From an uncultured Acidobacteriota bacterium (lineage in GTDB: Bacteria; Acidobacteriota; Thermoanaerobaculia; Multivoradales; UBA5704): a DNA stretch of 64,000 nucleotides. This document shows, piece by piece, positions 498 to 47,687 of this stretch. Under the pieces are notes generated by a model. The model made no database searches. It had not been told where the DNA came from and was given only the letters and a program-made list of their open reading frames with translations. Made by a program: the position numbers and the translations under genes. Position 1 is the first letter of the stretch. Each line of letters opens with the position of its first letter. The DNA is taken from assembly GCA_963792575.1 (NCBI GenBank), contig CAWBWZ010000001.1, positions 125,555-189,554 of the forward strand, written 5' to 3'.

Positions 498-3400
498 ATG
501 CCGACCTCCCTGGCCGCGATTCGTCGTCTCCATCCGCAATCTCCGGAGTTTCCGCACGGCTATCTGGACCGGATTGCCGAGACGGAACGGCGGGGGGAGG
601 CGCGGGAGGAGAGCTTCTACCCGCATCTGCTCGAGCTCTTCGATGACTACGCGGAGCGGCGGGGGGCGAGCGATCTCCGGGTGATGATGCTGCCCCGGAA
701 GACCCGGGACTGCCTGCTCGACTTCCAGGTTCGACGGGGAGAGCGGATCGCCGGCTACGTCGAGGCGAAGCGGCCGGGGACGGATCTGGACCGGTCGGCG
801 GACACCGGGCAGGTCGAGCGGTATCGCCTGGCCTTTCCCAATCTCCTCCTCACCAACTTCCGCGAACTTCGGCTCTACCGGGGGACGCAGATGGCGGCCC
901 GGGTCGACATCGGCCGGCTGGGCTCGGGGCCGGAGCCGCTCCTCTCCCTTCTGGATCTGTTCTGCGATTTCGTTCCGCCGGCGAGCGCCTCGGGCTCGGA
1001 GCTGGCGCCGCGATTGGCGTTTCGCACCCGCCTCCTGGCCGAGAGGATCGGCGAGCTGCTGAAAGACGAGGGGGCCTCAGATCTCTCCGGCTTCTACCGG
1101 GCCTTCTCGGAGCACCTCCTCGCCGGGCTCACCCGCGAGGAGTTCGCCGATCTCTACGCCCAGACTCTCTCCTACGGACTCCTCGCCGCCCGCTGGCAAG
1201 CGCCCGGGGATTTCGACCGCCGGATCGCGGCGGAGAGCATCCCGTCCACCAGCGGCTTGCTGCGCGACGCCTTCCGCTACATCTCGCTCGCCGATCCACA
1301 CCCGGACATCGCCTGGATCGTGGACGAGATCGTCGATCTGCTCGCCGGCTCCTCCGTGCGGGCGATGCTGGAGCGCTCGCTCCAGCGCGGGCGAGATCCG
1401 GTCCTCGACTTCTACGAGACCTTCCTCCGCCACTACGACCGGGAGCTGCGCAGAAAGCGCGGCGTTTACTACACGCCGCCGGAGCTGGTCTCCTACGTCG
1501 TCCGTTCCGTCCACCGGCTGCTCCAGACGCGGCTGGGCCGGCGGGACGGCCTCGCGGACCCGACCGTGACCCTCCTCGATCCGGCGGCGGGCACGCTGAC
1601 CTTCGTCATCGAGGCGATCCGCTGCGCCGTCGAGGAGGTACGGACCACGGCGGGCGGCGGCGGCGTGCCGGCGCTGGTGAGCGATCATCTGCTGCGGGAT
1701 TTCCACGCCTTCGAGCTGATGATGGCTCCCTACGCCATCGGCCATCTCAAGATGAGCCTGATCCTGGAGGAGCTGGGCCGGCCGCTCGGCGCGGGGGAGC
1801 GGGTGCCGTTCTACCTGACCAATACCCTGGAGATGGAGGATCTGGCGCAATCGACGATCCCCGGGACGGCGGCGCTGTCGCGGGAGTCCCGTCTGGCGTG
1901 CGGGATCAAGAACGACGCGCGGATCACCGTCATCCTGGGAAATCCTCCCTGGTCGGGCCATTCGGCGAACCGGGGGCATCGGGTTGAAGGGTACGACCGG
2001 ATCGACGGCCAGCCGCTGGGCGACAAGAACCCGAAGTGGCTGCAGGACGACTACGTGAAGTTCCTCCGCTTCGCCCAGCGGAAGATCGACGAGGCCGGCG
2101 AGGGGATCGTGGCGTTCGTGACCAGCCACGGCTACCTCGACAACCCCACTTTCCGGGGCCTGCGCCAGTCGCTCCTCGCGACGTTCGACGAGATCCACCT
2201 CCTCGATCTACACGGCAACGGCAAGAAGAAGGAGCGGGCGCCGGACGGCTCGGCCGACGCCAATGTCTTCTCCGACGTGCGGCAGGGGGCCGCCGTGGCG
2301 ATCCTGGTCAAGCGGCCCGGCCTGCCGAAGCGGACGCGGAAAGCCGACCTCTGGGGGAGCCGGTCCGCCAAGCTCCGCTGGCTGGGGGAGCACGACGTCG
2401 AGACCACCGGCTGGACGGTGATCGAGCCGCGCGGGCCGGCCTTCCTGTTCGCGCCGCGCGACGCCGCGCTGGAGGCGGAGTACGGCCTGGGCGTGCCGCT
2501 CGCCGGCATCTTCCCCGAGCATTCGGTGGGCATCGTCACCGGCCGCGACGCCTTCGCCATCGACACCGATCCGGCGGAGCTCAGCCGGCGGGTCGGGCGG
2601 CTCCGGAGCGAGATCGTGCACGACGACTTTGTCCGCAAGGAGTGGGGCTTGATCGACCGCGGGCGGTGCGGGCTGGAGGAGGCGCGCCGGAGGGTCCGGA
2701 CCGATCCGGACTGGCAGGCGAAATTTCGCCGCATCCTCTTCCGCCCCTTCGACTGGCGAAAGATCTTCTACGCCGACTACGTCGTCGAACGCCCCCGGCT
2801 CGAGACGATGAAGCACCTGCTGATCCCGGGGAACCTGGGGCTGGTGGTGCCCCGGCAGGGCAAGGAGGAGCCGGGCGCGCTGGTGACCGACACGATCATC
2901 GCGCACAAGACGGTGAGCGCGTTCGACATCAACTCCGCCTTCCCGCTCTACCTCCACCCGGAGCCGCGGCTGGACGGCGCCGGCCGTCTCGCCAACGTCG
3001 ATCCGGCCTTCCTCCGCCTCCTCGCCGGCCGTCTGGGCGAGGAGCCCTCGCCGGAGCTGATCCTGCAGTATGTCTACGCCATCCTCTACAGCCCTCCCTA
3101 CCGGCGGCGGTACGCCGATCTCCTGCGGGCGGATTTCCCGCGCATTCCGCTGCCGCCGGACCGCGGGGCCTTCCTGGAGCTGGCGGGGCTCGGCGCGGTC
3201 CTGATCGATCTCCACCTTCTGCGCTCGGATCACCTGGAGCGGCCCGGCGTCCGCTTCGAGGGGCAGGGGCCTGGGCATCTGGATGGGCGCCGCGAGCACC
3301 AGGACGACCGGGTGATCGTCAACGCCGAGGGGCAGGCGTTCGCGGGGATCTCCCACGAGGTCTGGGAGTACCGGATCGGCGGCTACCAGGTGTTGGACCG

Positions 3401-3563
3401 CTGGCTCGCCGGCCGCGCCGGGCGGGGGCTGCGCTGGGAGGAGATCGAGGAGCTCCGGAAGATCGCCACGGCGCTGCGATGGACGATCGAGATTCAGCGC
3501 CGCTGCGGCCTCCTCTGCGGCTTGGCGTTCCAGGGGTCCTCGGGCCAGGCGTGCCTGGGATAG
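498..3563 (+). CDS. Single-polypeptide type IIG/IIL-like restriction-modification enzyme (PD-(D/E)XK nuclease + gamma-class N6-adenine DNA methyltransferase + specificity region)
   Basis: 1021-aa ORF. The N-terminus has D75-x13-E89-A-K91 followed by RPGTDLD, resembling the MmeI-family nuclease motif. It also has YYTPPELVSYVV, the catalytic NPPW (VILGNPPWSGH), and a C-terminal region with YRRRYADLLRADFPRIPLP as seen in type ISP/IIG specificity domains. The last ~70 nt overlap the convergent hrpB end. Confidence 0.8.
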   Translation: MPTSLAAIRRLHPQSPEFPHGYLDRIAETERRGEAREESFYPHLLELFDDYAERRGASDLRVMMLPRKTRDCLLDFQVRRGERIAGYVEAKRPGTDLDRSADTGQVERYRLAFPNLLLTNFRELRLYRGTQMAARVDIGRLGSGPEPLLSLLDLFCDFVPPASASGSELAPRLAFRTRLLAERIGELLKDEGASDLSGFYRAFSEHLLAGLTREEFADLYAQTLSYGLLAARWQAPGDFDRRIAAESIPSTSGLLRDAFRYISLADPHPDIAWIVDEIVDLLAGSSVRAMLERSLQRGRDPVLDFYETFLRHYDRELRRKRGVYYTPPELVSYVVRSVHRLLQTRLGRRDGLADPTVTLLDPAAGTLTFVIEAIRCAVEEVRTTAGGGGVPALVSDHLLRDFHAFELMMAPYAIGHLKMSLILEELGRPLGAGERVPFYLTNTLEMEDLAQSTIPGTAALSRESRLACGIKNDARITVILGNPPWSGHSANRGHRVEGYDRIDGQPLGDKNPKWLQDDYVKFLRFAQRKIDEAGEGIVAFVTSHGYLDNPTFRGLRQSLLATFDEIHLLDLHGNGKKKERAPDGSADANVFSDVRQGAAVAILVKRPGLPKRTRKADLWGSRSAKLRWLGEHDVETTGWTVIEPRGPAFLFAPRDAALEAEYGLGVPLAGIFPEHSVGIVTGRDAFAIDTDPAELSRRVGRLRSEIVHDDFVRKEWGLIDRGRCGLEEARRRVRTDPDWQAKFRRILFRPFDWRKIFYADYVVERPRLETMKHLLIPGNLGLVVPRQGKEEPGALVTDTIIAHKTVSAFDINSAFPLYLHPEPRLDGAGRLANVDPAFLRLLAGRLGEEPSPELILQYVYAILYSPPYRRRYADLLRADFPRIPLPPDRGAFLELAGLGAVLIDLHLLRSDHLERPGVRFEGQGPGHLDGRREHQDDRVIVNAEGQAFAGISHEVWEYRIGGYQVLDRWLAGRAGRGLRWEEIEELRKIATALRWTIEIQRRCGLLCGLAFQGSSGQACLG

Positions 3564-6013
3564 CGGCCGGCCAGCTCCTTGCGGACCTGCCGGTAGGTGT
3601 TCTCCCAGAAGCTCCGCAGGTCGTGGGTCACCTGCTGGGGACGGCCGTTCGGGGCGAGGAGATGGAGGAGAACGGGGACCCGACCGGCGGCCACGCGCGG
3701 GGTCTCGGCGAGGCCGAACATCTCCTGGATGCGCGCCGCGAGCACCGGCGGCTTGCCCGGCTCGTAGGCGATCCGGATCTGGCTGCCGCTCGGCACCTCC
3801 AGCCGCTCGGGAGCCTCCCGGCGCACGGCTTCGAGCTGCTGATAGGAGAGGGCTCCCTGCAGGACGTCGAGAAGCGGGGCGCGCCGCAGCTCGGCGAAGG
3901 ATTTGCGGCCGGCGGCGAGGGCGGGGAGCAGCTCGCGGAGCTCATCCTCGGTGAACCGCGGGAGAGCCAGCTCGGGCATCCAGTCCGCGAGGCTGCGGAC
4001 GCGGGCGAGGAAGGCCGCCACCTCTGGGTCGTCCAGGGGCAGCGCGCGGTCGAGCCGTTCGGCGGCGGCCGCGGCGAGGACCCGCGCGGTCTCGGCCGCG
4101 TCCGGCGGCGGGACCTCGGCCTCGGCGATCACCAGATCGTCATAGCGGGTCCGCTTCCAGGCGGCGACCCGGTCGCGGGACTCGTCGAATTCCAGGTCGA
4201 TCGTGGTCCGCAGGCGCTCCGCGGGGAGCCACGCGAGCTCGACCTCCGAGGCCTTCCGCACCAGCGCATCGGAGAGTGTGCCGCCATCCAGCTCGACGCA
4301 GAGGAAGAGCGGCGCTTCGAGCACGGCGCTCTCGTCGGCGAGGCGCACCCCGCGGCCCCCCACCATGACGCCCCGCGGACTGCGCGGCTCGCGGCGGCGG
4401 GCGACGCGGTCCGGATAGGCGGCGAGAAGGGCGCGGAGGAGGGGCTCCTCTTCCCGTAGATCCCCGCCGTCCGGCCCCATCCCCAGCTCCCGTTTCGCCA
4501 GCTCCAGCAGTTGATCCCGGGCCCGCAAGACATAGCGGGCCGCGCCGGCGTTCAGGTCCCCTGCGAAGGCGTTCCGGCGCTCGAAGGCTTCGAGGGCGTC
4601 GAGGCGGTCGAGGAGGTCGGAGCGCGAGGCGCGGCGGGGTCCGGCGCCCCGGGAGGCGCGTGGGAACGGGTCCCGCTCGGAGAGCAGGGCGGCCAGCAGG
4701 GCGGCCTCGCGGGCACGGCCGAGGCGCTGCCCCTCGACCAGGAGGCGGCCGAGGCGCGGGTGGACCGGCAGGCGGGCCATCGTCCGGCCCAGCGCGGTAA
4801 CACCACGATCGTCGATCGCGCCGAGCTGCCGGAGCAGGAGCGTGGCCGTTGCCAGCGTCGCCGGATCGGGGGGCTCGAACCAGTCGAAGGCGGCGAGGTC
4901 GGGCTCCCCCCAGGCGAGGAGCTGGAGAGCCGGGCCGGCGAGGTCGACGCGGGCGATCTCCGGCGTCTCGCGCTCCGGGAGGGTCGCCTGCTCCCAGGCG
5001 GGCCAGAGGCGGAGACAGATCCCGGGGGCCTGGCGCCCGGCGCGGCCGGCGCGCTGATCGGCCGAGGCGCGGCTGATCTTCCCCAGCTCCAGGCGGTCGA
5101 GCCCGGTCGCCGGATCGAAGCGCAGCCGGCGGACGGCCCCGGAATCCACCACCGCGGTGACGCCGTCGACGGTGATCGAGGTCTCGGCGACGTTGGTCGC
5201 CAGCACGACCTTGCGCCGGCTCGAAGGGCGCAGCACCGCGTCCTGCCGCTCGGCCGGCAGATCGCCGTAGAGCGGCAGGACGGCGAGGTCCTGCTCGGCG
5301 GCCAGGCCGGCGAGAGCTTCGGCGCTCCGTTGGATCTCCCCAACGCCGGGGAGAAAGACCAGCACGTCCCCGGGAGTCGCCGCCAGCACCCGCCGCACCC
5401 CGGCGGCGATCTGGCCGGGCAGGGGGCGATCGTCCGGGCGGTCCAGATACAGGATGTCCACCGGATAAAGCCGTCCCCGGCTCTCGATCGCCGGCGCGCC
5501 GCCGAGGAAGGCCGCCACCGGGCCGGGGTCGAGGGTGGCGGACATGGCGACGAGCTTCAGGTCGGGGCGCACCTCGCGCTGGACGCGGCGCGCCATGGCG
5601 AGCGAGAGGTCGGTCTGCAGGCCGCGCTCGTGGAGCTCGTCGAAGATCACGACGCCCACGCCTTCCAGGAAGGGATCGGCCTGCAGGCGCTGGACGAGAA
5701 TCCCCTCGGTCACCACCAGGATCCGGGTCTCGGGACCCGCCTTGCGCTCGAAGCGCACCTGGTAGCCCACCTCGTGGCCGAGCGTCCAGCCGCCTTCCTC
5801 GGCCATCCGGCGGGCGGCGGCGCGGGCGGCGATCCGCCGCGGCTCGAGCATGACGATCTGCTGGTCGCCGCCGATCCCCGCGGCGAGCAGGGCGGGGGGA
5901 ACGCGGGTCGTCTTTCCCGCGCCGGTGGGCGCGATGAGCACGGCCGCGGACCCCTGGCGCAGGGCCGCGATCAGCTCGGGCAGGACCTCGTCGATGGGGA
6001 GCGGCGTGGGCAT
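3494..6013 (-). CDS. hrpB: ATP-dependent RNA helicase HrpB (DEAH-box)
   Basis: 839 aa. Walker A APTGAGKTT, DEAH-type FDELHERG, SAT (MSATL), and a long HrpB-type C-terminal domain. Confidence 0.9.
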   Translation of the reverse strand: MPTPLPIDEVLPELIAALRQGSAAVLIAPTGAGKTTRVPPALLAAGIGGDQQIVMLEPRRIAARAAARRMAEEGGWTLGHEVGYQVRFERKAGPETRILVVTEGILVQRLQADPFLEGVGVVIFDELHERGLQTDLSLAMARRVQREVRPDLKLVAMSATLDPGPVAAFLGGAPAIESRGRLYPVDILYLDRPDDRPLPGQIAAGVRRVLAATPGDVLVFLPGVGEIQRSAEALAGLAAEQDLAVLPLYGDLPAERQDAVLRPSSRRKVVLATNVAETSITVDGVTAVVDSGAVRRLRFDPATGLDRLELGKISRASADQRAGRAGRQAPGICLRLWPAWEQATLPERETPEIARVDLAGPALQLLAWGEPDLAAFDWFEPPDPATLATATLLLRQLGAIDDRGVTALGRTMARLPVHPRLGRLLVEGQRLGRAREAALLAALLSERDPFPRASRGAGPRRASRSDLLDRLDALEAFERRNAFAGDLNAGAARYVLRARDQLLELAKRELGMGPDGGDLREEEPLLRALLAAYPDRVARRREPRSPRGVMVGGRGVRLADESAVLEAPLFLCVELDGGTLSDALVRKASEVELAWLPAERLRTTIDLEFDESRDRVAAWKRTRYDDLVIAEAEVPPPDAAETARVLAAAAAERLDRALPLDDPEVAAFLARVRSLADWMPELALPRFTEDELRELLPALAAGRKSFAELRRAPLLDVLQGALSYQQLEAVRREAPERLEVPSGSQIRIAYEPGKPPVLAARIQEMFGLAETPRVAAGRVPVLLHLLAPNGRPQQVTHDLRSFWENTYRQVRKELAGRYPRHAWPEDPWNAKPQRRPQRR

Positions 6014-41802: not shown

Positions 41803-42702
41803 ATGCGCTACCGCTACTACATTTGCGATGTCTTTACCGAGACCCGCTTCAGTGGCAATCAACTGGCCGTGCTGCCGGAGGCCCAGGGTCTTTCGGACCG
41901 GCGGATGCAGCAGATCGCCCGCGAGTTCAACTTCGCCGAGAGCACGTTCGTGCTGCCGGCGGAGGCCGGGCATACCCGCAGGGTTCGCATCTTCACCCCC
42001 ACCACCGAGGTTCCCTTTGCCGGGCATCCCAATATCGGCACCGCGTTCGTCCTGGCGGCCGCGGGCGAGTTCGGGCCGATCCTGCCATCGCTTACGGTGA
42101 CCTTCGAGGAGAAGGCGGGGCTCGTCCCGATCACCATCCAGCGACGCGAGGGGGGCCGCCTCTGGTGCGAACTGTCGGCGCCCCAGCGTCTTTCGCTGGG
42201 AAAGACCGTTTCCGCGCAGTCTCTGGCAAGGGCGGTTTCGCTCACTCCGGAGGATGTCGTCACTCGGACCCACCTACCCCAGGTGGCCTCGGTCGGCCTG
42301 CCGTTCCTGGTGGCGGAGCTCGCGGATCGCTCCGCTCTCGAACGAGCGCGCGTCAACATGGATGGGCTCGACGCCCTCGTCGCCGAAGGCGTGACCCCCG
42401 ACGTCCATCTGTATGTCCACAGTGCCGACGAGTTCGATCTTCGAGCCCGCATGTACGCACCTCTGGACGGGGTCCCGGAAGATCCCGCCACCGGCAGCGC
42501 GAACTGCGCCCTGGCCGGATTGCTCAGTCAGTGCGACGGGAGGACCGACGGCAGCTTCCGCTGGCGCATCGCCCAGGGGGTGGAGATGGGGCGTCCCAGC
42601 GTTCTGGAGGCGCGCACAGTGAAGAGAGAGGGAGCCGTCGTGGACATCCGGATCGGCGGGGCGAGCGTCCTCGTGAGCGAAGGTTTCATTGAGGTCGATT
42701 AG
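41803..42702 (+). CDS. PhzF-family isomerase-like protein
   Basis: MRYRYYICDVFTETRFSGNQLAVL ... EFNFAESTFV ... and a C-terminal GGASVLVSEGFIEV. Confidence 0.88.
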   Translation: MRYRYYICDVFTETRFSGNQLAVLPEAQGLSDRRMQQIAREFNFAESTFVLPAEAGHTRRVRIFTPTTEVPFAGHPNIGTAFVLAAAGEFGPILPSLTVTFEEKAGLVPITIQRREGGRLWCELSAPQRLSLGKTVSAQSLARAVSLTPEDVVTRTHLPQVASVGLPFLVAELADRSALERARVNMDGLDALVAEGVTPDVHLYVHSADEFDLRARMYAPLDGVPEDPATGSANCALAGLLSQCDGRTDGSFRWRIAQGVEMGRPSVLEARTVKREGAVVDIRIGGASVLVSEGFIEVD

Positions 42703-42745
42703 TCATTCGAAAGGAAAACAGGAGACCGAGAACGTGAAGAACGGA

Positions 42746-43747
42746 ATGCGCGCCATCGTCGTTCAGAAGCTGGGACCGCCCGAGGTCCTGGAGCTGAGCG
42801 AGGCGCCGGTGCCCCAGCCAGGCCCCGGGCAGGTGCTGGTGCGGCTTCATGCCGCGGGTGTGAACTTCTCGGACACCGAGCGGCGGCGGGGCATCTATCC
42901 CGCGTTCGATCTACCCTGGATCCCCGGCACGGAGGGGGCCGGCCGGGTTGTCGCGGCCGGCCCTGGCGTGGAGCCCACTTTGCTCGACCGGCGCGTGGCC
43001 TTCTGGGCGATGCCGCCGGCGGTGAGCGGCACCTACGCCGAGTACGCGGTAGCGCCGGCGAGCTCGCTGTTTCTCCTCGGACCGGACACGCCCTTCGACC
43101 TCGGAGCCGCCTTTCCGCAGCAAGGGCTGACAGCGTATGGTCTGACCTTCTTCGCGACCACGATCCACCCCGGCGCCACGGTCCTCATCCACGCGGCCGC
43201 GGGGGGCGTCGGCCAGATCCTGGTCCAACTCGTCCGCCGGCAGGGCGCCCGCGTTTTCGGGAGCGTGTCGAGCCCTGAGAAGGCCGACGCCGTGGCCGCC
43301 CTTGGCGCCGAGCCGCTCCTGTACGGGGAGGATCTGCCGGAGCGCGTCGCGGCGGCCACCGGCGGGCGCGGCGTGGATCGCGTCTTCGATTCGGTCGGCA
43401 AAGCGACGCAGGTCCAAAGTCTCGCGATGCTGGCTCCCCACGGCGAGCTCATCTTCTTCGGTGACGCGAGCGGTCCACCGGCGCCGATCGACCCGGACCA
43501 TCTCTACGGCCGAAGCCTCAAGATCGGCGCCTTCGGCCTGAACGTCGACCGTGATCCGGCGGCTTGGGCGGCGGCCCGCCGGCATCTCCTGGAGTGGATC
43601 GAAGCGGGGGAGCTGGCGATCTCGATCTCGCGGCGTTTCCCGCTTGAAAAGGCCGCGGAAGCGCACCGTCTACTCGAGAGCCGGGCCACGACCGGCAAGG
43701 TCGTCCTGATGCCGGCCGGCGCGGAAGAGCGGCGGCAGGGCACCTAA
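42746..43747 (+). CDS. qor: NADPH:quinone oxidoreductase (MDR superfamily)
   Basis: MRAIVVQKLGPPEVLEL..., GVNFSD, the cofactor motif HAAAGGVGQILVQL, and a C-terminal ATTGKVVL. Its last 156 nt (43592..43747) are copy 1 of the repeat family described below. Confidence 0.9.
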   Translation: MRAIVVQKLGPPEVLELSEAPVPQPGPGQVLVRLHAAGVNFSDTERRRGIYPAFDLPWIPGTEGAGRVVAAGPGVEPTLLDRRVAFWAMPPAVSGTYAEYAVAPASSLFLLGPDTPFDLGAAFPQQGLTAYGLTFFATTIHPGATVLIHAAAGGVGQILVQLVRRQGARVFGSVSSPEKADAVAALGAEPLLYGEDLPERVAAATGGRGVDRVFDSVGKATQVQSLAMLAPHGELIFFGDASGPPAPIDPDHLYGRSLKIGAFGLNVDRDPAAWAAARRHLLEWIEAGELAISISRRFPLEKAAEAHRLLESRATTGKVVLMPAGAEERRQGT

Positions 43748-43819
43748 TTGCGCCTCGAGGCTGGACAGGATCGCGGTCACCGACAGATTCGAATCCATGG
43801 CTCTTTCTCCAGGAAAAAC

Positions 43820-44125: not shown

Positions 44126-44347
44126 GCCTTCACGGCACCGGCGCGAGCCTGGCGCGCCTCCAGGCCGTGGCTCTGGGGTGAGCTTCGTGGCTCATGAACC
44201 TCGATGCCTTGATCGACCGCGGGTCCGTGAGCGGCGACGCGGAGCGCGCCAACAAGTATTTCTCTCTCTCAACGGGCTTTGCGACGTCCTCGGCGTCGAG
44301 CGCCCGCACCCGGAGAGGGTGCGAGAGGTGGAGAGGTACCGCTGAGA

Positions 44348-44529
44348 GAGGTGCCAGGCGCTTCGTCAGGGGGGAGTGGATTGAAGCGGGGGAGCTGGCG
44401 ATCTCGATCTCGCGTCGTTTCCCGCTCGAGGAGGCCGCGGAAGCGCACCGCCTGCTCGAGAGCCGGGCCTCGACCGGCAAGGTCGTTCTGTTGCCGGCCG
44501 GCGCGGAAGAGCGGCGTCAGGGCACCTGA
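44348..44529 (+). repeat. qor 3-prime-end pseudo-copy 2 with upstream GAGGTGCCAG motif
   Basis: 44374..44529 aligns base for base with 43592..43747, with about 12 mismatches over 156 nt. It still translates to EWIEAGELAISISRRFPLEEAAEAHRLLESRASTGKVVLLPAGAEERRQGT plus a stop. It is preceded by GAGGTGCCAGGCGCTTCGTCAGGG. Confidence 0.85.
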
Positions 44530-44672
44530 TAAGGGGTGGCCGGTTTCATGTCCGCTCCCGCGAGCCCCGGTCCAACATCCGGAGAGGAAAGAGTCATTAA
44601 CAAGAGCTTCGCCAGGAAGCTGACCGCGCGAACCGACGGTTCGGGCGTTCAGACTACAGTGAGACGGTCGGC

Positions 44673-45284
44673 TTACCCGTCCTCCTCATCCTTTGCGATA
44701 GTGAGGATCACCCGCAGTGTCGGAGCCTCACCCTCCCAAAGCGCGCTCCACTCTGAATCAGACAGGTCCCACTCCACTGAAGGCGCCTTCGAGTTCGACG
44801 TCCCGATGCCCAGGGCGTAGTTGCCCATCGCGTTGACGGCGGCCCCCTTCGTTGCGCCAAGCACGAGATCATCCCACTGCTGCCGGCGGACCTCTTTTCC
44901 CTTCGAGAGCAGGGCAACTGAGAGGGCTACGTGTTGGCGAATCCACTCCGTGCTCAGTGCCGTGGTGGCGGTGATTCTCTTTTTCCCTCGCCGATCCTCC
45001 AGCCGCAGGAGCACCACGCCGATCCTTGCCTTGTCACAGACGTATCCAGTGGCATCGTTGTAGGCTCGCGTCACCCCTGCAGGCGAGTCATTGAATGCCT
45101 TCCGCGGTTTCCCGTTAGGCGATGTGCCGGCCCCAAGCGGAATGTCCACTAGCATCGGGCTGGGTATCTCCCGCGAGTTCGTTGCGGTCGCCATGTCCTC
45201 AGGCGTTGCTTGTCGAACCTGAGGATAAAGCGGCCATGCCGACAGTGTCCCAAGGATGCATGCCTGCACAAGCATCTTGCGCAT
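44673..45284 (-). CDS. hypothetical secreted protein (cassette 2)
   Basis: ATG preceded by GAGGAGAGAAGG. Signal peptide MRKMLVQACILGTLSAWPLYPQ. No motif recognised. Lower GC. Confidence 0.55.
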   Translation of the reverse strand: MRKMLVQACILGTLSAWPLYPQVRQATPEDMATATNSREIPSPMLVDIPLGAGTSPNGKPRKAFNDSPAGVTRAYNDATGYVCDKARIGVVLLRLEDRRGKKRITATTALSTEWIRQHVALSVALLSKGKEVRRQQWDDLVLGATKGAAVNAMGNYALGIGTSNSKAPSVEWDLSDSEWSALWEGEAPTLRVILTIAKDEEDG

Positions 45285-45531
45285 ACCTTCTCTCCTCTGT
45301 TGAAGTGACACCTAATTTTCGCCCGGTTCGCTCCTCCCGTCCATCCGTCTCACTTCCGCCTGTCACAAAATTGTCTCCTCCCAACGCCTGACCCCGCCAT
45401 GGGGCGTGTCCTAACTCAATGTGGGCGGTGGCCGGGAGGACGGGTTGAGGTTCAGCAAAACTCGCTAACACTACAGTTGCACACGGTGTCGGTCCCACAA
45501 AAACTTGCAGTGAAAGGAGAGGGTGAAGGGA

Positions 45532-45687
45532 GAGGTGCCAGGCGCTTTGTCAGGGATCGAAGCGGGGGAGCTGGCGATCTCGATCTCGCGGCATTTCCCA
45601 CTCGAAGAGGTGGCGGAAGCGCACCGTCTGCTGGAGAGCCGGGCCTCGACCGGCAAGGTCGTCCTGATGATGCCGGCCGACGGCTGA
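45532..45687 (+). repeat. qor 3-prime-end pseudo-copy 3 with upstream GAGGTGCCAG motif
   Basis: GAGGTGCCAGGCGCTTTGTCAGGG is followed from 45556 by IEAGELAISISRHFPLEEVAEAHRLLESRASTGKVVLMMPADG plus a stop in the qor frame. Confidence 0.8.
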
Positions 45688-45816
45688 GACTGCGATAGAA
45701 TAGCCCTCACAAACGATGGCCAGAGGTTGTGGGTGTGCCGCACCGTCCCCGCAATGGATAGACGGCTGAGGGCCGCCTCCCGCCTGTGTGTTCGTCAAGG
45801 CCAGTCAGGGAGAACC

Positions 45817-46113
45817 ATGAGCTACTTTGTCCTCTTCGCCGTGGTCCTGGTCATCTGTTTCGGGATCAATCGAGCCAAGGGCCGGCCAGTCTCGAATCCA
45901 GGCTTTGTGGCTCTGATCGTCCTTGCCATCTTCCTCATAGTCGACCTCGGGTTCGGGGTCTACATGCTGGCTGGTACTCGCGTGGATCCCGAAATGCAAG
46001 GCAGGTTCATTGGCGGGATCATCGGCCGCGCGTTGATTCCGCTCATCCTTGCCACCTTGATCGGCAACAGCTTCCGCAAGAAGCACTCGATGCCGGTTCA
46101 GACTCTGGATTGA
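45817..46113 (+). CDS. small membrane protein, about three TM segments (cassette 3)
   Basis: AGGGAGAACC RBS. 98 aa: MSYFVLFAVVLVICFGI..., FVALIVLAIFLIVDLGFGVYML, IGGIIGRALIPLILATLIG. Confidence 0.6.
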   Translation: MSYFVLFAVVLVICFGINRAKGRPVSNPGFVALIVLAIFLIVDLGFGVYMLAGTRVDPEMQGRFIGGIIGRALIPLILATLIGNSFRKKHSMPVQTLD

Positions 46114-46165
46114 GAGAACGGCCGGTCACTTTCCGTCGTCCAGCGACAATACGAGGAGTCAGCTC

Positions 46166-47239
46166 GTGAAGAAATCGATGCTCTTTATCAGTCATATAGC
46201 CAAAGAAACGGACCTGGCCCAGTGCCTGAAGAAGTTTCTGGTCAACGACTTTCTAGGCATTCTCGAAGTGTTCGTTTCATCCGACGGAAAGACGATCCAG
46301 GCAGGAGAGCCGTGGCTGAACAAGCTGAGTGAGGCACTGGAAAGGGCGAAGTTCGAGATCGTCCTATGCAGCAAGGAATCCGTCGCGCGTCCCTGGGTCA
46401 ACTTCGAAGCCGGTGCCGGTTGGGTCCGCGGGATCCGGGTTATGCCCGTCTGTCATTCAGGGCTGATCCCGGACCATCTGCCGATGCCCCTGAACCTCCT
46501 TCAGGGGATCGAAGCTGGCCGCCCAGAAGGTCTGCAGCAACTCTACGAGGCGATTGCGGGACTGCTTGAGGTGCAAGTGCCAAGAGTTGATTTCAAGGCT
46601 ATGGCTCAAGAGGTTGAAGCTCTCGAGGAAAAATACCGCCTGTCAGGTCAGGACCTGGAGCGGATCGATAATCCTCGGATCCTCTGCGCGGCCAGTGAGC
46701 AGTACACCGATCACATGAAGTTCGATATGGATGTCGCGGTTTTAGAAGAGATATTCCCTGGGCAAGTCGTGGTAGAGCGTCGGTTGACGTCAGATCGCCT
46801 TCGTCGGTTACTGACAACTCAGACCTTTGAAGTCATTCACTTGGTACTGCCAATCGACCCCGAGAGCGGCGACCTTCTGTTCAGTCCAGTCGGTTCCGGA
46901 CACAAGCCGTCCACTCCCAAAGTCGACAAGATGTTGCCCGAATTTTTCGCCACGCTTCTGGTAGAGTCAGAGACCCGGTTGGTGGTCCTGGCCACCTGTT
47001 ATGCTTTGTACTTGGCCGTCGAAGTCGCGCGTATCGCGAACATGGTTGCTACCAAGGCCATAGTGAATGGCGAGCAGATGGCCGAATGGAGCGAATGCTT
47101 TTACGGCCTGCTCGCCGGAGGTTACTCCGTGTACAAGGCCTACGAGATCACGGAGTCCAATAGAAACTTGGTGCCGATGAAGCTACTGCGCCAGAAAGAC
47201 GTAGCCTTCTCATTCGCAGCAAAATCGACCGGCGAGTAG
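46166..47239 (+). CDS. TIR-domain protein with a C-terminal caspase/CHAT-like (His-Cys) domain
   Basis: GTG start 8 nt after GAGGAG. TIR hallmarks LFISHIAKETDLA..., VFVSSD..IQAGEPW, IVLCSKESVARPWVNFEAGAGW (candidate catalytic Glu). The C-terminus has FEVIHLVLP ... LVVLATCYAL ... FYGLLAGGYSVYKAYE. Confidence 0.75.
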   Translation: MKKSMLFISHIAKETDLAQCLKKFLVNDFLGILEVFVSSDGKTIQAGEPWLNKLSEALERAKFEIVLCSKESVARPWVNFEAGAGWVRGIRVMPVCHSGLIPDHLPMPLNLLQGIEAGRPEGLQQLYEAIAGLLEVQVPRVDFKAMAQEVEALEEKYRLSGQDLERIDNPRILCAASEQYTDHMKFDMDVAVLEEIFPGQVVVERRLTSDRLRRLLTTQTFEVIHLVLPIDPESGDLLFSPVGSGHKPSTPKVDKMLPEFFATLLVESETRLVVLATCYALYLAVEVARIANMVATKAIVNGEQMAEWSECFYGLLAGGYSVYKAYEITESNRNLVPMKLLRQKDVAFSFAAKSTGE

Positions 47240-47279
47240 TCTGGGCGGAGGACGCGGACGCGCACCGCCGGCAACGGGC

Positions 47280-47329
47280 GAGGTGCCAGTCCCTCTGTAG
47301 GGCGCGGGAGAGCGGCGGTAGAGCACCTA
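47280..47329 (+). repeat. qor 3-prime-end pseudo-copy 4 (internally deleted), distal island boundary
   Basis: GAGGTGCCAGTCCCTCTGTAGGG is followed directly by CGCGGGAGAGCGGCGGTAGAGCACCTA. The native end is CGCGGAAGAGCGGCGGCAGGGCACCTA. Confidence 0.7.
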
Positions 47330-47378
47330 TACCTTATGATGGCCGGCTTGACGCCGGCTGGCAACAAGGAGACCAACG

Positions 47379-47687
47379 ATGAAGAACTTTACGAAAGCCC
47401 TCGTCCTGCTCGCCCTCTTCGCCCTGGCCCTCTGCGCCCAGGGCATGGCTCAGACTCCGGCGGCGGCGCCCGTTCCCGCCAGCACCGCGGACTTCCTGGC
47501 GACCCTGTCAGGCGGCCAGGGCAACGTCACGAGCGATCTGCTTCCCAGCCCCATCTTCCTCTCGACACTCTGCGCCACCAACGCCGACTGCCCGACGGGG
47601 CAGCTCTGCTGCTACCCCTGCGGCATCGACGGCTGCAACCGGGTCTGCACGAAGCCGCTGCGCGGCCACTGCCCGCTGTATCCGTAG
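47379..47687 (+). CDS. small secreted Cys-rich protein with a WAP-like four-disulfide-core motif
   Basis: Signal MKNFTKALVLLALFALALCAQGMA. C-terminal CATNADCPTGQLCCYPCGIDGCNRVCTKP resembles C-x3-DCP-x3-xCC-x2-CG-x3-C-x3-C-x2-P of WAP domains. Confidence 0.6.
   Translation: MKNFTKALVLLALFALALCAQGMAQTPAAAPVPASTADFLATLSGGQGNVTSDLLPSPIFLSTLCATNADCPTGQLCCYPCGIDGCNRVCTKPLRGHCPLYP

Follow-up and report, generated by a model that had tools for sequence, protein, structure and literature searches.

A cassette gene in an Acidobacteriota genome fuses a TIR module to a CHAT-like domain lacking the canonical catalytic histidine

Several described bacterial immune systems contain TIR or caspase-fold domains. 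The SAVED-CHAT protein of type III-B CRISPR-Cas (PDB 8tl0) joins a CHAT fold to SAVED, a signalling domain. It is an active protease with a full catalytic dyad, published as H375/C422 (10.1101/2023.06.23.546230). In type IV Thoeris, a TIR protein signals to a separate caspase-like protein through N7-cADPR. The catalytic Cys of this caspase is required for defence, and the enzyme cleaves after Arg (10.1101/2024.10.24.620036). The CBASS effector CAP12 (TIR-SAVED) and the Pycsar effectors PycTIR and PycTM join a TIR or two-transmembrane (2-TM) output to a control domain, and the ligand of this domain is a nucleotide that the neighbouring cyclase synthesises. SpbK is reported to be a one-protein abortive-infection TIR NADase (PMC12847820). 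Here we analyse a gene in a 64,000-nucleotide (nt) stretch of DNA from an uncultured Acidobacteriota bacterium (contig CAWBWZ010000001.1), hereafter the window. The gene (46166..47239, + strand) encodes a protein of 357 amino acids (aa), in which a TIR module is followed by a CHAT-like caspase-fold domain without the canonical catalytic His. We tentatively read it as a stand-alone TIR NADase effector of the abortive-infection type, governed by the histidine-less CHAT-like domain.

The protein resembles each of these systems in part. Its C-terminal domain is closest to SAVED-CHAT in both structure and sequence, and both proteins pair the CHAT fold with a second signalling domain. Unlike SAVED-CHAT, it has an N-terminal TIR domain as the partner, and no CRISPR or cyclase gene is located near it in the window. 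Type IV Thoeris likewise has TIR and caspase-fold domains in one immune unit. However, it consists of two genes and a C14 caspase, whereas here the domains are fused, the second is of the CHAT type with the catalytic His missing, and no neighbouring gene is conserved. Like CAP12, PycTIR and PycTM, the protein and its relatives combine a TIR or 2-TM output with what may be a control domain, but this domain is CHAT-like and no conserved cyclase or partner is found nearby. No family covering the whole protein is present in PADLOC, NCBIfam or Pfam, and PADLOC gives weak matches to its TIR domain only. The C-terminal domain has no family in PADLOC, NCBIfam or PHROGs. The absence of a named family had been anticipated by the original prediction, which was made from the DNA letters alone. 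In the literature, the term ‘TIR-CHAT’ was not found, nor was a description of a TIR / CHAT-like fusion family. A CHAT fusion is not mentioned in a survey of TIR systems (10.64898/2025.12.03.692087) or in a domain-centric screen (PMC13069673). A CHAT+TIR protein is mentioned once, as the target of a diversity-generating retroelement (PMC10907252).

The TIR module comprises residues 1-157 (46166..46636, + strand), which form the evolutionarily conserved unit. The TIR fold itself occupies approximately residues 1-118, with two linker helices after it. Pfam TIR_2 (PF13676) is matched by residues 7-117 with 39.3 bits, above the gathering cut-off of 28 (E 1e-9), and also by all 33 aligned homologues. 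The module contains a WxxxE motif, W77-V-N-F-E81 (46394..46408, + strand). W77 and E81 are invariant in the 33 homologues and align with WTNYE of AbTir, a TIR NADase from Acinetobacter. The Glu in this AbTir motif is the catalytic E208. TIR NADases have a conserved catalytic Glu in the WxxxE motif of helix alpha-C, and E81 is the putative catalytic Glu of the window protein. The AlphaFold2 model of the full-length protein has a predicted local distance difference test score (pLDDT) of 87. In a Foldseek search with this model, the best matches after SAVED-CHAT were the TIR domains of SPARTA (TIR-APAZ), SpbK, AbTir and BtpA. SpbK, the AbTir-like TIRs and SPARTA TIR-APAZ share the fold and the WxxxE Glu with the window protein. 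They differ from it in their non-TIR parts, which are unrelated, and a CHAT-like domain has not been described in them. Residues 1-157 also match a phage protein family, phrog_29177 (E 5.7e-30). These results agree with the original prediction of an N-terminal TIR domain with a Glu of the NADase type. The TIR domain probably cleaves NAD+.

The C-terminal domain spans residues ~165-349 (46658..47212, + strand) and adopts a caspase/CHAT fold homologous to CHAT. A separate model of residues 158-357 has a pLDDT of 90 and a predicted template-modelling score of 0.88. Its best Foldseek match in the PDB is SAVED-CHAT 8tl0 (E 8e-9, template-modelling score 0.69). The other PDB matches are MALT1, caspases 6/7/8, TPR-CHAT of Craspase and separase, all of which have the caspase fold, and a viral structure library gave generic caspase-like matches only. 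At the sequence level, the relationship surfaced only in profile and profile-profile comparisons. The domain profile finds the 8tl0 CHAT sequence with E 3e-5, placing LVVLATC on LVVLNAC with the following FY helix also aligned. An hhalign comparison to 20 canonical short CHAT domains gave 95.6% probability (E 1e-8, 155 columns). In direct searches, the whole protein had only weak TIR matches against the PDB, and it had no match to Pfam CHAT (PF12770) at E<1. Pfam CHAT is matched by 5/33 close homologues and by 18/85 more diverse representatives at E<1e-3, and its threshold is passed by the distant relatives P0140 (46 bits) and P0193 (26.6 bits). The caspase/CHAT-like fold had been proposed from the ordered motifs, and structure prediction with Foldseek and profile comparison have borne it out.

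The active site is only partly preserved. C278 (LVVLATC; 46997..46999, + strand) is aligned with the CHAT catalytic Cys (LNAC) after strand beta-4, and it is invariant in 33/33 close homologues. The situation is different for the His. Canonical CHAT domains contain an invariant motif, I-V-H-F-S-G-H-G. The spacing of 47 between H375 and C422 in the alignment indicates that the second His in this motif, that of GHG after strand beta-3, is the catalytic one. In two independent hhalign runs, F-D-I-V-H225-L-V of the window protein was placed on P-x-I-V-H-F-S. H225 (H225-L-V-L-P229; 46838..46852, + strand) is therefore equivalent to the first, non-catalytic His of HxxxHG. The catalytic His column is occupied by Pro229 in one run, with Ala in most homologues, and corresponds to a deletion in the other. 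In both structure models, H225 is located in the middle of the strand formed by residues 223-227. In caspase-fold enzymes, the catalytic His would be expected just after this strand. The original prediction of a His-Cys dyad, formed by the His of IHLV and the Cys of LATC, is thus half right: the Cys is at the catalytic position, but the His is not.

Diverse relatives provide additional information on these positions. We surveyed 85 representatives of clusters at 50% identity. The Cys is kept in 72/85 representatives and lost in 13/85. The H225 column contains His in 73/85 and Gln in 10/85, with Gln, Leu or Glu replacing His in 12/85 in all. Position H225+4 is variable (Y, F, P, Q, D, A and others). 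The most conserved columns of the CHAT-like domain are G235, W308 and F312. P0140 is a natural control, in which a canonical CHAT domain (IIHFSGHG ... ILNTC) is followed by a copy of the CHAT-like domain (VVHLSAIA ... FLSSC).

These observations bear on a rival explanation, that the protein is bifunctional, a TIR enzyme and an active cysteine protease with a non-canonical catalytic center formed by H225/C278 or C174/H225/C278. In one version, a ‘fused type IV Thoeris’, the caspase-like domain would be activated by the TIR product of the same protein. The position of C278, the invariance of C174, H225 and C278 within the close family (33 homologues), the activity of SAVED-CHAT as the protein with the closest fold, and the precedent for TIR-to-caspase signalling in type IV Thoeris (10.1101/2024.10.24.620036) are consistent with it. 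However, the GHG catalytic His has no counterpart, H225 is in a beta strand four residues upstream, and the diverse relatives that lose the Cys (13/85) or replace the His (12/85) argue against a protease. The presence of a canonical CHAT domain besides the CHAT-like domain in P0140 suggests that the two are not redundant, and no match to Peptidase_C14 was found. We consider an active protease unlikely. The residue pattern makes a conventional Cys-His protease an improbable function for the CHAT-like domain. With the active-site Cys kept and the canonical catalytic His lost, it is most likely a sensing, regulatory or assembly module.

The CHAT-like domain is joined to a variety of N-terminal modules. 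We counted the architectures of those 85 of 565 cluster representatives that have 75 aa or more on the N-terminal side of the domain. TIR_2 is found in 25 and the TIR of CAP12 and Pycsar effectors in 19. A two-helix membrane module, TPLGFFVLVVLVVEA, is found in about 30. A PycC-like cyclase (P0129), EAD1 and canonical CHAT (P0140) occur once each. PADLOC recognizes these modules in relatives, with E 1e-48 for a CBASS effector model, which the TIRs of the CAP12/Pycsar type match, E 4e-35 for PycTIR and, in another subgroup, E 5e-53 for its ‘TIR-TM’ model. The presence of varied N-terminal modules on a constant CHAT-like module indicates that the output module is swappable. The reverse is also observed. 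In a scan of one genome per species, the TIR module of residues 1-157 is joined to at least 13 other classes of C-terminal domain, which are small and mutually unrelated (L025-L085). For the 2-TM module TPLGFFVLVVLVVEA, the number of other C-terminal domains is at least 22 (L108-L163). At BLAST E 1e-3, no C-terminal domain besides the CHAT-like domain is common to the TIR-module and 2-TM-module fusions. Therefore, a few output modules, the same as those in CBASS and Pycsar effectors, combine with many C-terminal modules including the CHAT-like domain. The TIR-module and 2-TM-module fusions together form a large repertoire of small single-gene proteins built combinatorially.

No gene accompanies this family consistently. 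To find conserved neighbours, all open reading frames (ORFs) of 70 aa or more lying up to 4 kb from the gene were clustered. Among 22 homologous loci no flanking gene is shared, and only shadow frames of the TIR gene itself clustered. No conserved neighbour was found among 10 loci of 2TM-CHAT-like genes. In the window, the genes flanking the island that contains the TIR gene are metabolic, encoding a dienelactone hydrolase, a lactonase-like propeller and an ABC permease / glucodextranase-C module. The side-by-side arrangement of signal enzyme and effector in Thoeris, CBASS and Pycsar was thus not seen at the 22 loci or in the window, and the claim that no known Thoeris or CBASS partner is nearby holds.

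A mechanism can be proposed on this basis. The 357-aa gene would be a self-contained, horizontally mobile, single-protein conflict module. Its TIR domain would be the effector, probably NAD+-cleaving and active once TIR domains are brought together. The CHAT-like domain would be a pseudo-protease that serves as a sensing, regulatory or assembly module, either binding a trigger or mediating oligomerisation. It would hold the place taken by SAVED, STING and cNMP-binding domains in CBASS and Pycsar TIR effectors. Since the known systems have a control or sensor domain at this position, and no conserved neighbour that could produce a signal is present here, we infer that the CHAT-like domain senses a trigger directly or mediates assembly. 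It is also conceivable, if somewhat doubtful, that histidine-less CHAT-like domains as a group are an unrecognised family of pseudo-protease sensors or assembly modules, which detect infection or another trigger directly and switch on whichever output is fused in front of them, be it TIR_2, a TIR of the CBASS/Pycsar type, a 2-TM pore module or a PycC-like cyclase.

Several points weigh against a sensor-governed defence effector. The argument for a defence role is one from architecture and context. Many homologues are located among ordinary metabolic genes, outside recognisable defence islands. The invariance of C278 and H225 would also fit catalysis with a non-canonical base. In addition, the hhalign register near the His is derived from profile alignment and secondary structure, not from a solved structure.

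The family is large and widely distributed. More than 714 full-length homologues of ~355 aa were found at 50-95% identity. Clustered at 90% identity, the full-length form accounts for more than 700 clusters. An exhaustive profile search with the C-terminal domain gave 565 clusters at 50% identity. In the genome collection, the hosts include Acidobacteriota, Thermoanaerobaculia, Gaiellaceae, Acidimicrobiia, Mycobacterium (Actinomycetota), Bacteroidota, Thauera, Rubrivivax, other Proteobacteria and Nitrospira. At one locus, L091 (5770-13420), a patatin gene and a TPR gene are found together with five TIR-domain genes in a stretch of 8 kb, which looks like a TIR-rich conflict island. Its TIR genes encode TIR_2 alone, pentapeptide-TIR, TIR-CHAT-like, TIR-FGE-sulfatase and a 358-aa TIR protein of the CAP12/PycTIR type.

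Some TIR proteins of bacteria are known to have roles outside defence. The window protein could accordingly be a housekeeping or regulatory TIR protein, functioning in NAD-linked signalling or as a protein-protein adaptor, and located in a variable region by chance. The metabolic genes that flank most homologues, and the lack of a PADLOC model covering the whole protein, are consistent with this explanation. We nonetheless regard a non-immune role as improbable. The patchy distribution across phyla, the location in a cassette with low G+C content and the TIR gene cluster in L091 argue against it. The N-terminal modules shuffled onto the CHAT-like domain are those of CBASS and Pycsar effectors, and the TIR module matches a phage protein family.

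The TIR gene is preceded in the window by an ORF for a small membrane protein of 98 aa, which we call TM98 (45817..46113, + strand). The gap between the two ORFs is 52 nt and they are on the same strand. TM98 contains three hydrophobic segments. Purine-rich Shine-Dalgarno-like sequences are found before both ORFs, AGGGAGA before the ATG of TM98 and GAGGAG before the GTG of the 357-aa ORF. This GTG start is supported by the homologue in a related metagenomic contig (L093), in which the same codon is ATG. The positions, the three membrane segments and the ribosome-binding site had been reported correctly, and all of the motifs quoted for the 357-aa protein (LFISH, VFVSSD, AGEPW, NFEAGAGW, FEVIHLVLP, LVVLATCYAL and WSECFYGLLAGG) are located in its translation.

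The original prediction went further and proposed that the two genes form a TM + TIR module, with TM98 as the membrane partner. In such a module, TM98 would serve the TIR protein as its effector at the membrane or as a regulator. Their shared strand, the short gap and the good ribosome-binding sites are compatible with this, and Thoeris systems include effector pairs of a TIR and a TM protein (10.64898/2025.12.03.692087). Three closely related genomes, those of the window, L001 and L093, have kept the pair, in each case at the locus of a quinone-oxidoreductase-like gene (qor). However, TM98 is absent within 5 kb of the TIR gene at all other full-length loci (>25 loci), and in a tblastn search of 85 loci with TM98, L001 was the sole match. 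Conversely, L092 and L094 contain TM98 with no TIR gene, and DNA similarity to the window ends at the TM98 coding region. The two genes also differ in their substitutions. Compared to L001, TM98 has 6 synonymous and 9 non-synonymous codon differences, close to neutral. The TIR gene has 49 synonymous and 20 non-synonymous differences, indicating purifying selection on the TIR / CHAT-like gene. Homologues of TM98 form five clusters at 60-100% identity, every one 98 aa long, and TM98 has no family in PADLOC, NCBIfam or PHROGs. The two-gene module is rejected by the criterion that the original prediction itself had set, as the pair is not co-conserved beyond this narrow lineage and each gene is found alone elsewhere; we consider it very improbable that TM98 acts with the TIR protein. 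TM98 is most likely a separate small cassette gene and no obligate partner of the TIR gene.

Both ORFs are located in a series of small cassettes downstream of qor. The qor gene (42689-43747) contains Pfam ADH_N / ADH_zinc_N. Copies of its 3' end recur between 43591 and 47333 and delimit three cassettes. The native 3' end (43591-43748) is followed by a second copy, 92% identical to it, at 44373-44530. The third copy (45549..45706, + strand; repeat family D1), 75% identical to the native one, is the proximal boundary of the TIR cassette. A degenerate fourth copy (about 47247..47333, + strand; repeat families D3, D4, D7 and D8; alignment A3) is the distal boundary. TM98 and the TIR gene are located between copies three and four. 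The interval of the two ORFs has a G+C content of 56%, compared to 68% in the whole window and 70% in the adjacent qor gene. With qor 3'-end repeats at both edges and this lower G+C content (0.56 against 0.68), the mobile, lower-GC cassette described at the outset is confirmed.

Related genomes reveal other states of this locus. In L093, the 3' end of an intact qor gene is identical to the third copy in the window, and TM98 and then the TIR gene follow it directly. In L001, whose TIR protein is 95% identical to that of the window, qor is followed by a PhzF-like gene and an acyltransferase gene. The differing states in the window, L093 and L001 indicate that the qor locus is a hotspot for variable insertions. 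Each unit that inserts there seems to carry a replacement qor 3' end. The repeats look like serial insertion at the 3' end of a gene by elements mobilised in trans. No match to an integrase family was found among the scanned proteins in or beside the island, and a search for tRNA genes from 38 to 52 kb of the window found none. In a promoter/terminator scan, no promoter-like site was found on the + strand; two terminator-like matches were both within coding sequence, with no excess over shuffles.

Additional features are found at this locus. A 26-nt box, GAGAGGTGCCAGGCGCTT[C/T]GTCAGGG, immediately precedes the qor-like segment in both the second and the third repeat copy (44346-44371 and 45530-45555), with a weaker copy at 47276-47298. 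It has no counterpart in the native qor gene and is a candidate recombination-site core or cassette boundary. The second cassette contains an ORF of 212 aa (44673-45311, - strand) with a hydrophobic N-terminus. It is 98% identical in L001 and has no family match in Pfam, PADLOC, NCBIfam or PHROGs. In L001, the qor gene is split into two called ORFs (127 and 144 aa; 3271-4102), and may be frameshifted or a pseudogene. The PhzF-like gene that follows qor in L001 precedes it in the window (window 42001-42702, equivalent to L001 4352-5056). Just past the last qor repeat, the window contains a gene for a Cys-rich protein of 102 aa with a signal-peptide-like start (47379-47687, + strand). A 54% identical homologue is found in L078 (2047-2328), 2.7 kb from a protein carrying the TIR module.

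TIR domains and caspase-fold proteases are emblematic cell-death modules of bacterial, plant and animal immunity, and here they are found in one compact protein. The TIR / CHAT-like family is large, yet it is missing from the defence-system catalogues queried. Should its C-terminal half serve as a sensor or scaffold and not as a protease, bacteria would have a counterpart of animal pseudo-caspases and paracaspase scaffolds. This half would also be a new control domain beside the SAVED, STING, CARF and cNMP-binding domains, governing both TIR and membrane effectors. If the histidine-less CHAT-like domains are indeed a family of direct sensors or assembly modules, their fusions would constitute a new class of single-protein abortive-infection systems, spread over many phyla of soil bacteria, with a caspase fold that serves as sensor instead of executioner.

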